13,674 nucleotides of DNA from Candidatus Hadarchaeota archaeon (GTDB taxonomy: Archaea; CAYQAE01; CAYVLA01), in the NCBI GenBank assembly GCA_964621445.1, contig CAZUNO010000045.1, positions 1 to 13,674 of the forward strand, read 5' to 3'. The notes beneath the pieces are model-generated. The model was given only the letters and a program-made list of their open reading frames with translations. It did no database searches and was not told the origin of the DNA. Position 1 is the first letter of the stretch; every line of letters begins with the position of its first letter. Positions 5,604 through 7,674 of the stretch are shown here, in pieces. A program made the translations under genes and the position numbers.

Positions 5604-5883
5604 TTCCTTCCAGAGAAATGCAATCAAAAAGGCTTCCTCCCGATGTTGTCGCCCATGTAAAGGTTTCCGTCCGGAACTTAAGGTATTATCGGGAACATGT
5701 ATCAATCTAAGGGGTCTAGGGCTTTCTTCTCCCAATTTTGGTGAAACAAATCTTAACGATTCCTCCCCCTTCAGTATGGAATCGTGAAAATCGGTAGGAA
5801 GGGGAATTTCCCATCTGGATTCTAAAGGTGAAAACAACCCCTTTTACGGTAGATTCAAGATTATGCTGGGAAGATCGGTGTAT

Positions 5884-5905
5884 CCTTATAGAATTCTTTT
5901 TTAGG
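5884..5905 (+). promoter_or_regulatory. Candidate TATA box(es) for the tRNA gene
   Basis: CCTTATAG at 5884-5891 and TTTTTTAGG at 5897-5905. The second would put the transcription start near 5925, the first base of the leader repeat. Confidence 0.35.
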
Positions 5906-5924
5906 TAGGAATACAGAAAAAGCT

Positions 5925-6037
5925 GTGCCGGACACACAAAGCCCAGGTGACAGAGAGGCCAAATGTGTCCGGTTGAAAACCGGATAGGCTCTACGGCCTC
6001 GAGGGTTCAAATCCCTCCCTGGGCGCCTGTCCGGCAC
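5925..6037. repeat. Perfect 10-bp inverted repeat flanking the tRNA (GTGCCGGACA 5925-5934 / TGTCCGGCAC 6028-6037)
   Basis: Read directly: the two 10-mers are exact reverse complements, 6 nt before and 2 nt after the tRNA body. Confidence 0.9.
5941..6025 (+). tRNA. Class II tRNA with serine-type body and GAA (Phe) anticodon, 85 nt, CCA not fully encoded
   Basis: Acceptor GCCCAGG 5941-5947 / CCTGGGC 6018-6024; discriminator G6025; D stem ACA/TGT with AG and GG in the loop; anticodon stem TCCGG 5968-5972 / CCGGA 5980-5984; loop TTGAAAA with GAA at 5975-5977; variable arm AGGC-TCTACG-GCCT; T arm GAGGG-TTCAAAT-CCCTC. Confidence 0.93.
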
Positions 6038-6038
6038 G

Positions 6039-6048
6039 TATTTTTGTT
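6039..6048 (+). terminator. Oligo-T tract, candidate archaeal terminator of the pre-tRNA
   Basis: TATTTTTGTT immediately after the 3' arm of the inverted repeat. Confidence 0.45.
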
Positions 6049-6656
6049 GACGTTCTAACCATAAAAACGTATCGTTTGATACAGATAAGGATAGAATATG
6101 GTCACAACCAAAAAAATCCAAAAAACAAGCCATATCCGAAATTTCGGATTTGAATGCACGAGGTCAAACCAATCCTCTTTATGGTAAGGTGAAGGACTAT
6201 TTGTATCCTGGGAGACACCGATCTGCCCAGAGTATTTCTCCATCTTCTTTTTTTGAAAGTGGGCTGCCCTTAGTTTGTCTGCCTAGTTGAAAGATATCCG
6301 CATCTACGGAATTTTCTGTAGATCCCCATAGTGTTTCGAATTCCTGTAGCAGCCCAAAATACGTGGCATTCATTTTCCGAAAATCGGCTTTTTAGGTAGC
6401 CTACCCAAGGCCAACCAGCGAGGCATAGATATCGGGTCTCCCCCAAACCCCCAAGAGTCAACCATCAACCAAAAATCCCGTAAATTCCTTCTATGAACGA
6501 TAATATTCAGAAAAATAACATCATAAAAAGCACCAATATCCTCGTAATTAGGGCTTCTTGTCCCGCTATGGCTTGGACATTTCTAGCTTTTCTTCCCCCT
6601 CATTATCAAGCATTTCATCAAGGCCAGCGAAAATATTACTCAAGGCATCTTTAACA

Positions 6657-7674
6657 TGATTGAATCCGAAAATTATTTCACCCCCTTGTTTGTGGTGGTG
6701 AGGTGGTTAAGCTTACTGACTTGAGGATTAGGTGGTTGATGAGGCGGAAAGAGGGAGGGGGAGGACGCACAGGAAGATGGCCAGGGTGTATGGTATCACG
6801 CCTAGACAGCTCCAATAGCTGTGGGCTTAGTACAGGTCCACTGAAGAGATGTCCACTCTCAAGAAACCAGGTAGACCCAAGAAGCCTCCTGACCCGGTGG
6901 AAGAGGAGATGGTTCTGGGGATGTGGCACATGCACCAGGTGTGTGTGCGGTCATACTGGAACACCTGATCCAGAAGGAGCATGACAGGAGGATACCGCAT
7001 AATTGTATTCACAGGATCCTTATGAAGCATGGCTATCCGGTGCGATAGGAAGCATTCCATGTCTCTGTGGCATGGATTGGTACGAGATGAACAAGATCGA
7101 TCCACAGCTCGGAGAATGGCTGTTGACGGTGCAGGACGACTCCTCGAGGAAGATCATGAATTTCGGCGTGTTCGATAACGCTACCTCCAGGCATAGCGTG
7201 GAGGTTCTAGACAAAGCTATCCGTAGGCGCGGTGCTCCGGACGAGGTGATCACCGATAAGGGTGTACAGTTCTACGCTATGGATGGCAAGTACAAGAAGA
7301 ATGGGTACAACGAGTTCGAGAAGTACCTACAGGCCCACGGCATTCGGCACATACTGGCCAGGACCAGGCACCCCCAGACCAACGGTAAGATAGAACGCCT
7401 CTTCCAGATCATGGCCAGCCAGGTAAGCTACCACACATCTCTCAACGACATGATAGAGTAGTACAACACCAAGAGACCCCGCATGAGTCTAGGGATGGCC
7501 ACACCGGAAGAAGCCTTCTGGAACAGGATGAGCATGGAGAGAATGCTCGGACAGACCAGCCACATACTCAACCCAGAACACTTCACCCCAGACCAAACAC
7601 CGAGATGAAGACATGACCAACACCAACCAAAAAACACCAAACACAGAGGGGCGAAATAATAATGGGATAAGACA
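6657..7674 (+). mobile_element. Degenerate IS481-family insertion sequence (about 1.0 kb)
   Basis: Imperfect terminal inverted repeats: left ...ATCCGAAAATTATTTCACCCC (core 6672-6684), right GGGGCGAAATAATAATGGGATAAGACA ending in ACA at 7674 (TGT on the other strand, typical of IS481). They enclose a decayed DDE transposase. No target duplication seen; the left boundary is approximate. Confidence 0.8.
6703..7608 (+). pseudogene. IS481-family transposase pseudogene (HTH + rve integrase core)
   Basis: Pieces across frames: MVKLTDLRIRWLMRRKE / MARVYGITPRQLQ*LWA*YRST...LKKPGRPKK / IPHNCIHRILMKHG / RKHSMSLWH / DWY...VQDDSSR...ITDKGVQF...HPQTNGKIER...E*YNTKRPRMSL. Several frameshifts and in-frame TAG stops (e.g. 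7459-7461). Confidence 0.88.

Follow-up and report, generated by a model that had tools for sequence, protein, structure and literature searches.

A leader with two conserved partners: complementarity of leader, trailer and D/anticodon arm around a Hadarchaeotal serine-type tRNA with the anticodon GAA

What role could be played, in the precursor of a transfer RNA (tRNA), by a leader that is complementary both to the trailer at the opposite end of the transcript and to the interior of the tRNA itself? The question is raised by a single gene in a 13,674-nt contig of Candidatus Hadarchaeota archaeon (GenBank assembly GCA_964621445.1, contig CAZUNO010000045.1), which was analysed over its entire length, is referred to here as the window, and is contig C45 of genome G000 (3.2 Mb in 89 contigs). 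The gene is the only tRNA found in the window by ARAGORN (5941-6027, anticodon GAA); it is matched by the Rfam tRNA family (RF00005) over 5941-6025 at 55.1 bits (E = 8.2e-10), above the gathering score of 29, and no Rfam family besides tRNA matches anywhere in the window at E values of up to 1. The explanation favored here, to which a probability of roughly 0.55 can be given, is that of a clamped-precursor unit for a Ser-type tRNA(GAA), in which the leader would be handed over from the D/anticodon arm to the trailer as the transcript is completed.

Both complementarities were claimed in a preliminary description of this DNA, and direct reading verified their coordinates (features of the window lie on the + strand unless stated otherwise). 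The leader strand GTGCCGGACA (5925-5934) matches the reverse complement of the trailer strand TGTCCGGCAC (6028-6037) at every position, the pair forming what is called here the clamp, and the leader segment CCGGACACA (5928-5936) is complementary without a mismatch to TGTGTCCGG (5964-5972), which on the cloverleaf comprises the 3' strand of the 3-bp D stem (5964-5966), G26 (5967) and the 5' strand of the anticodon stem (5968-5972). Because the leader strands 5925-5934 and 5928-5936 overlap, the clamp and this alternative helix are mutually exclusive. A second alternative helix associates the 3' strand of the anticodon stem and the start of the variable arm (5980-5989) with 6025-6034, over 10 bp including one G.U in a forced fold of the window copy. 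When the 25-nt leader was shuffled 200,000 times and compared with either the 25-nt trailer or the tRNA body, a perfect leader-trailer match of at least 10 nt arose in 184 shuffles (0.09%) and a perfect leader-body match of at least 9 nt in 472 (0.24%). Both complementarities are thereby confirmed as real, and not due to chance. Within the same genome, comparison covered 33 of the 42 tRNAs predicted by ARAGORN, after exclusion of 6 predictions longer than 200 nt and of 3 located at the ends of contigs; for the window gene and a relative on contig C15, pairing of leader with trailer yields -22.7 and -22.6 kcal/mol, respectively, and includes perfect runs of 10 nt, and the next-best duplex among the other 31 reaches -14.7 kcal/mol with a 6-nt run. 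The possibility, raised along with the original claims, that most tRNA genes of this organism have comparable stems can thus be set aside, a leader-trailer stem of this size being present in 0 of these 31. As for pairing between leader and body, the longest perfect run is 9 in the window copy and 8 in the next-best tRNA.

The RNA enclosed by the clamp (5941-6025, anticodon GAA at 5975-5977) is identified by ARAGORN, Rfam and covariation as a class II serine-type tRNA, with a 7-bp acceptor stem, a 5-bp T stem, a long variable arm and the discriminator G73 (6025). GAA reads Phe codons, and none of the four intact copies described below carries a serine anticodon (NGA or GCU). The serine-type character lies in the long variable arm, in G73 and in an acceptor stem resembling those of the host tRNA-Ser genes (GCCGGGG/GCTGGGG acceptors, with G73), which are also resembled by the U8-G9 and D-loop pattern. 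When 150 other archaeal genomes were scanned with a model of the family, the best matches outside it were ordinary tRNA-Ser genes, at 68-77 bits; Hadarchaeotal tRNA-Leu reaches about 58 bits. According to the accessible text of PMC9976931, serine identity is set by the variable arm and G73, and not by the anticodon. Judged from its sequence, the window tRNA is most likely a Ser-accepting tRNA that decodes UUY, and insertion of Ser at Phe codons would be expected, since seryl-tRNA synthetase ignores the anticodon. A canonical, intron-bearing tRNA-Phe(GAA) is present elsewhere in the genome (contig C19, 16867-16958), so that the GAA tRNA of the window is an extra gene. In the genome as a whole, ARAGORN predicts 42 tRNAs when introns are allowed and only 23 without the intron search, which indicates that most host tRNA genes bear introns, in some cases at non-canonical positions. 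The two processing enzymes are encoded as well, with scores of 203 bits for an archaeal RNase P RNA and of 352 bits for RNase Z. The open reading frames that overlap the tRNA unit (5716-5937 and 5861-6133, minus strand) are mechanical and display no gene hallmarks.

The gene belongs to a family that has been found only in Hadarchaeota-type genomes, with four intact copies in three of the five genomes searched, plus two decayed relatives. The intact copies are that of the window (5941-6025, + strand; model score 149.1 bits), a second, diverged copy on contig C15 of the same genome (2241-2326; 137.1 bits), a copy in genome G003 (contig C198, 4236-4321; 115.1 bits) and one in genome G002 (contig C69, 43-132, minus strand; 62.3 bits), and both the GAA anticodon and the clamp are present in all four. 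The G003 copy is the orthologue of the C15 copy: about 250 bp can be aligned, including a T-rich promoter box, and the neighboring genes differ. The decayed relatives, on contig C85 of the window genome (171-250, minus strand; 31.0 bits) and on contig C30 of G003 (about 1480-1590; 50.2 bits), retain acceptor, D and T arms together with a degraded leader and trailer, but are missing a proper anticodon arm; one of the two is annotated by ARAGORN as 'Pro(AGG)', and the other escapes its detection. No member was found in genomes G001 (99% complete) and G004 (98% complete), and neither BLAST over 60 relatives nor the model over 150 relatives located one beyond the five genomes of the phylum. Pattern scans gave a similar picture. 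An exact pattern (anticodon arm and T loop) returned 0 loci from genome contigs, a D-arm pattern 0 loci from metagenome contigs, and two scans of viral sequences 0 loci and 1 chance locus, respectively. A leader/T-loop/trailer pattern hit 57 metagenome loci, where the 15 that matched the model and the 10 that were inspected proved to be ordinary tRNAs or non-tRNA, with 0 family members. A looser anticodon-arm pattern recovered 12 genome loci, only two of which, the G002 and G003 copies, belong to the family; the others were rejected as 7 ordinary intron-bearing archaeal tRNA-Phe genes, 2-3 non-tRNA loci and 1 class II GAA tRNA-like gene of Sphingomonas. The latter (Sphingomonas sp. Leaf208, contig L130, 2390-2477) is called tRNA-Phe by ARAGORN, and its acceptor stem appears imperfect by eye. 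The DNA contigs of a second study contain a copy that differs over 5942-6102 only in the lack of a single T, as well as a close variant of the leader region and a more distant homologue with the leader GGTGCCGGGTTCATTT. Lastly, the helix is absent from 7 of the 7 best non-family matches in the 150 other archaeal genomes, all ordinary tRNA-Ser genes, and the clamp is thus not a general feature of tRNA-Ser.

An alignment of the four intact copies, which come from three genomes, offers an indication of what has been preserved. For the cloverleaf and clamp together, 96.4% of cells are paired and 13 of 35 pairs have changed on both sides, a pattern of helices kept by compensatory change that is expected of a member of RF00005; the copies therefore appear functional, and under selection as tRNAs. 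The clamp comprises 10-11 bp in every intact copy. Of its 10 pairs in the alignment 7 are invariant, one is A-U in two copies and G-C in the other two, and in the C15 copy the last two pairs have changed from C-G and A-U to U.G and G.U, wobbles that pair only in the sense RNA and thus argue for a role at the level of RNA over one at the level of DNA. The cloverleaf and an 11-pair clamp are also given, independently, by the RNAalifold consensus, and it is highly probable that the clamp is a selected RNA structure. The alternative helix is kept in 4/4 copies as well, with 37 of 40 cells paired over 10 pairs (92.5%) and three pairs changed on both sides; it consists of 9 Watson-Crick pairs in the window, of 10 pairs including one G.U in the G003 copy, of 9 pairs including one G.U in the G002 copy, and, in the C15 copy, of 5 Watson-Crick and 2 G.U pairs, a mismatch and then 2 more pairs. 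At columns 21-50 this helix is A-U in two copies and U-A in two, the leader position concerned lying outside the clamp and tracking the D stem. The second alternative helix is weaker, with 89.3% of cells paired over 7 counted pairs. These data bear out the expectation that homologues conserve both complementarities, changes on both sides of pairs included, and the leader (5925-5936) thus displays the hallmark of a switch between mutually exclusive helices, one strand with two exclusive conserved partners, in 4/4 copies. Whether the pairing of the leader with the D/anticodon arm is itself under selection is a more delicate matter, for which we would give somewhat less than even odds.

The regions that surround the two strands are consistent with a transcript that includes them. 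AT-rich, TATA-like boxes were recognized by reading and alignment at 5886-5903, namely TTATAGAA at 5886-5893 and a T-rich box at 5893-5903, the latter being conserved in the alignment with the C15 and G003 copies. In ordinary host tRNA genes, clear TATA boxes have their midpoint some 30 nt upstream of the mature 5' end, so that leaders of a few nt are implied, whereas the boxes of the window centre 45-51 nt before that end (family range, 36-51 nt). The usual spacing between box and start is about 26 nt, and the upstream position of the boxes would therefore place the start of transcription at the leader strand or a few bases before it, at roughly 5916-5927 in the window; this agrees with the start near 5925 that had been proposed from the TATA-like box, and would not lie downstream of about 5935. 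A T precedes the first G of the leader strand in all four copies. Between the clamp and the acceptor stem, the linker CACAAA (5935-5940), whose length is 6 nt in the window, against 3 nt in each of the three other copies, forms the unpaired 5' side of an internal loop and leads to the RNase P site (5940/5941), while the CC that follows the discriminator (6026-6027) completes the sequence G73-C-C, which forms the 3' side of the loop with the tRNase Z site; GCC is conserved in three of the four copies, and the loop measures 6x3 nt in the window and 3x3 nt in the other copies. Both cleavage sites, which the leader-trailer helix had been said to enclose, are thus predicted to lie unpaired within this loop and to be bracketed by helices. 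The archaeal bulge-helix-bulge consists of two 3-nt bulges on opposite strands with a 4-bp helix between them, and a processing stem of this kind was rejected, the clamp region containing a single internal loop and no such pair of bulges. As to the T tract reported after the trailer, direct reading places a TTTTT, a possible archaeal terminator signal, at 6041-6045, and homologues do not conserve it.

Folding models provide a tentative order of events. The segment 5925-6045 reaches a minimum free energy (MFE) of -63.6 kcal/mol (z = -7.85), which none of 200 shuffles equals, and the leader-trailer helix is present in both the MFE and the centroid structures. The D loop (5955-5962) is complementary to the variable arm (5993-5999), as GAGGCC/GGCCUC here and as CUGAGC/GCUCAG in the C15 copy, and because of this complementarity energy models prefer a non-cloverleaf fold by 9-15 kcal/mol. 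Equilibrium pairing probabilities were calculated at every transcript length for three copies (those of the window, C15 and G003). In the nascent RNA, the alternative helix is predicted to dominate, with a probability of at least 0.8 from the emergence of the 5' strand of the anticodon stem up to a length of about 74 in the window copy, 68 in C15 and 106 in G003, a result that supports the suggestion that the leader first pairs with the D/anticodon arm during transcription. The anticodon stem then takes over at a length of about 75-100 in the window copy, of about 73 in C15, and only of 108 in G003, at which point the 3' strand of the acceptor stem is complete. In all three copies its modelled probability is at least 0.96 once the tRNA body is completed and before any trailer base exists, so that the trailer is not thermodynamically required to free the leader; the companion claim, according to which only a full-length transcript frees the leader for the trailer, finds no support in this result. 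Direct paths from the alternative fold to the MFE structure have barriers of 8.6-17.4 kcal/mol (upper bounds), which the trailer does not lower. A crude kinetic walk held the alternative helix until the emergence of the trailer or the end of the transcript in three of nine runs (three sequences at three thresholds), an outcome that depends on parameters, since the walk can move to the global MFE only and does not respond monotonically to its threshold. A transient hairpin between leader and arm is thus plausible according to the models.

The favored explanation can be laid out as follows. Positions 5886-6045 would represent a self-contained transcription unit for a lineage-specific class II, G73 serine-type tRNA with GAA, whose promoter would lie 10-20 nt further upstream than that of ordinary host tRNA genes; with the promoter thus shifted, the primary transcript would begin at the 10-11 nt leader strand or just before it. 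In the nascent RNA, the leader would first pair with the 3' strand of the D stem and the 5' strand of the anticodon stem, would be displaced as the 3' strand of the anticodon stem, the T arm and the 3' strand of the acceptor stem emerge, and would finally be captured by the trailer, leaving the clamp stacked under the acceptor stem across the small internal loop. The clamp would likely serve to insulate and define the ends of the precursor, and to slow or condition 5' and 3' processing of the tRNA. Of these elements, it is the transcription start, the order of folding and the effect on maturation that we infer.

A number of observations weigh against this explanation, whether in whole or in part. 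In nearest-neighbor folding the cloverleaf is not the MFE structure (-54.1 versus -63.6 kcal/mol), and model energies for the D and variable arms must therefore be considered unreliable. The alignment holds only four sequences from three genomes, two of which are orthologous (the C15 and G003 copies), and its covariation amounts to few events; when columns were shuffled 500 times, the covariation score observed for the alternative helices was attained in 13 shuffles, and their count of doubly changed pairs in 67. In the G002 copy the acceptor region is irregular and the variable arm masked, and the T tract is found in the window copy only. The remaining points concern the match between the leader and the D/anticodon arm, and are best considered together with a more economical explanation, namely that the clamp is selected and that this match is a functionless by-product, giving rise at most to a harmless transient hairpin. 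Both helices are built on CCGG, a palindrome that pairs with itself by definition, and the first 7 bases of the trailer duplicate positions 25-31 of the tRNA (TGTCCGG), so that the alternative pairing is largely automatic, 7 of its 9 pairs following from the clamp. The leader-body duplex of the window (-22.0 kcal/mol) is barely ahead of those of unrelated tRNAs (-21.3 and -20.9 kcal/mol), equilibrium models dissolve the alternative helix before the trailer exists, the C15 copy has weakened it to 5 Watson-Crick and 2 G.U pairs with a mismatch, and a change in the trailer of the G003 copy preserves the clamp and breaks the second alternative helix. What speaks against a by-product is that, in 4/4 copies, the alternative helix extends past the part determined by the clamp, and that the leader tracks the D stem there, columns 21-50 having the two A-U and two U-A pairs mentioned above and columns 19-52 being A-U, G-C or G.U. 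In addition, anticodon stem, leader and trailer have all changed together from A-U to G-C in the G002 copy, and leader shuffles matched the body over at least 9 nt in just the 0.24% of cases given above. A by-product remains, in our estimation, a serious but unlikely alternative to a leader hand-over.

With the clamped precursor and its leader hand-over as the preferred reading, the two pairings of the leader suggest a possible built-in control over the folding and maturation of a risky tRNA. It is rather improbable, by comparison, that the clamp and the alternative pairing act as a safety catch on a toxic tRNA, as initially envisaged, and we would give the same low odds to the notion that Hadarchaeota retain a deliberately mistranslating Ser-tRNA(GAA) under a folding and processing lock, in which the leader would mask the nascent D/anticodon arm before passing to the trailer, and mature tRNA would be released solely upon opening of the clamp by some cellular factor or condition. 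If true, such a lock would do for a tRNA what fold-back does in the control of type I toxin mRNAs. The GAA gene has been maintained across several species, and in one genome as two diverged copies, and it bears on the question of how cells that retain serine tRNAs with foreign anticodons tolerate them. Should maturation be limited by the clamp or by the hand-over of the leader, the locus would offer a natural instance of tRNA control at the level of precursor folding, of which we know only from designed riboswitch-tRNA fusions, and a compact model of about 120 nt for co-transcriptional tRNA folding; if the clamp merely defines transcript ends, it would constitute a modest addition to archaeal tRNA processing.

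The genes found near several copies evoke a different question, that of whether this RNA is matured into a translating tRNA at all. The clamp could persist on a tRNA-like RNA that serves, for example, as a decoy or partner for tRNA-targeting enzymes of toxin-antitoxin systems. The C15 copy lies 233 nt downstream of a MazE-like/PIN pair (locus L001, 1339-2008), the G003 copy about 110 nt upstream of a minimal nucleotidyltransferase (NTP_transf_2; locus L129, 4448-4969), and the window contains an AbiEi-like (weak)/AbiEii pair at 43-1615; the two decayed copies, moreover, have lost the anticodon arm and keep the acceptor and T arms. Allo-tRNAs have been reported near toxin-antitoxin systems, some of them thought not to be used in translation, in the accessible portion of PMC5389517. 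These adjacencies may nevertheless be due to chance, since the genome has 18 PIN matches and a single one is weak evidence, the AbiE pair is 4.3 kb away from the window copy, and no toxin-antitoxin gene was found in the 1.9 kb available around the G002 copy. The RNA itself speaks for a decoding role: GAA and the whole anticodon stem-loop form the most conserved part in all four intact copies, all helices of the cloverleaf covary as for a decoding tRNA, and both cleavage sites are left unpaired by the internal loop. An RNA that is withheld from translation is, for these reasons, quite unlikely.

In the immediate vicinity of the tRNA unit, no convincing genes were found between 5600 and 7000. 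Two similar peptides encoded by short open stretches on the + strand flank the unit, …G.NNPFYGRFK… (5806-5890) and …GQTNPLYGKVK… (6150-6290), and weakly resemble NUMOD3 of homing endonucleases, with E values of 0.05 and 0.14 that fall below the Pfam cut-off; they could represent what is left of a disrupted gene within which the tRNA unit has come to be located. An inverted repeat matching at 16 of 18 positions (5868-5885 and 6211-6228) brackets the whole unit, of about 360 bp, and is absent elsewhere in the genome. On the minus strand, 18 nt at 6146-6163 are 83% complementary to the T arm (5997-6014, + strand), either by chance or as a scrap of another tRNA copy. Further downstream, a 152-aa frame (7003-7461, + strand) matches only an integrase core (rve) and looks like a fragment of a transposase.

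Such surroundings could favor the idea that the 10-bp inverted repeat formed by leader and trailer acts in the DNA, as a recombination site, a cassette boundary or a protein-binding site, and conservation between the C15 and G003 copies does extend over only about 250 bp amid different surroundings, while the window copy lies between the arms of the longer inverted repeat and near the integrase-core fragment; this is nonetheless the least credible of the explanations considered, given that in C15 the leader TG opposite the trailer TG pairs only in the sense transcript and is mismatched in DNA or antisense RNA, that the 10-mer is not enriched (9 occurrences in the genome on both strands, against an estimated 6 or so), that the flanks are unique in the genome, and that the repeat falls within the predicted transcript and immediately adjoins the acceptor stem. 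Two further candidates were rejected, namely a multi-copy miniature inverted-repeat transposable element, the flanks and the 18-nt inverted repeat being unique in the genome, and the relic of a split or permuted tRNA, leader and trailer copying only 5-7 nt of the anticodon stem without any other remnant of a half-gene.

How, then, does this unit compare with systems that are already known? A full-text search of the literature located no description of a class II tRNA(GAA) in Hadarchaeota, nor of a natural tRNA gene bearing a conserved leader-trailer clamp of 10 bp, absence from the library searched being no proof. With regard to the tRNA itself, a human tRNA-Ser G35A variant reportedly reads Phe codons and inserts Ser there, and shares with the GAA tRNA the combination of a serine-type body and a Phe-reading anticodon. 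Allo-tRNAs, bacterial serine tRNAs with non-serine anticodons that are often located near toxin-antitoxin genes, have, in the accessible text of PMC5389517, a serine-type body and a foreign anticodon. Membership in this group was rejected, since that text requires a 12-bp acceptor branch of the 8/4 or 9/3 type and the branch is 7/5 here; a leader-trailer clamp is not mentioned in it either, the word 'leader' occurring 0 times.

With regard to the clamp, the closest likeness is to the tRNA-shaped mascRNA of human MALAT1, in which, according to the available part of PMC8457004, the 5' flank also pairs with the 3' trailer beside the acceptor stem and this pairing promotes cleavage by RNase P. As portrayed there, however, the mascRNA helix, which has one bulged A, prolongs the acceptor stem by a short stretch, whereas the clamp is 10-11 bp long and separated from that stem by an internal loop, and mascRNA is a module at the 3' end of a long non-coding RNA and not a decoding tRNA, unlike the GAA tRNA. 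The control of maturation through a pre-tRNA leader that is either sequestered in a helix or free has been achieved in designed RNase P riboswitches, which are described in the accessible sections of PMC8925977 as synthetic and ligand-driven, the leader pairing within an added aptamer. The clamp, in contrast, is natural and is not known to respond to a ligand, and the partners of its leader are the tRNA's own arm and the trailer. Long-range pairing between the flanks of a stable RNA is reportedly also a feature of bacterial and archaeal ribosomal RNA (rRNA) operons, whose leader-trailer stems are said to carry processing sites; these stems flank 16S and 23S rRNA, whereas the clamp flanks a tRNA. 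In archaeal rRNA stems, a bulge-helix-bulge is cut by the splicing endonuclease, a motif that has no counterpart in the clamp. Finally, paired transcript ends keep a harmful product from becoming active in type I toxin mRNAs, of which hok is an example, and alternative hairpins form while these RNAs are nascent. The GAA unit has neither the ribosome-binding site nor the toxin reading frame and antisense RNA of such mRNAs; being a tRNA, it falls outside that class. What this Hadarchaeotal locus displays is hence a set of known principles in a new form, on an unusual tRNA.

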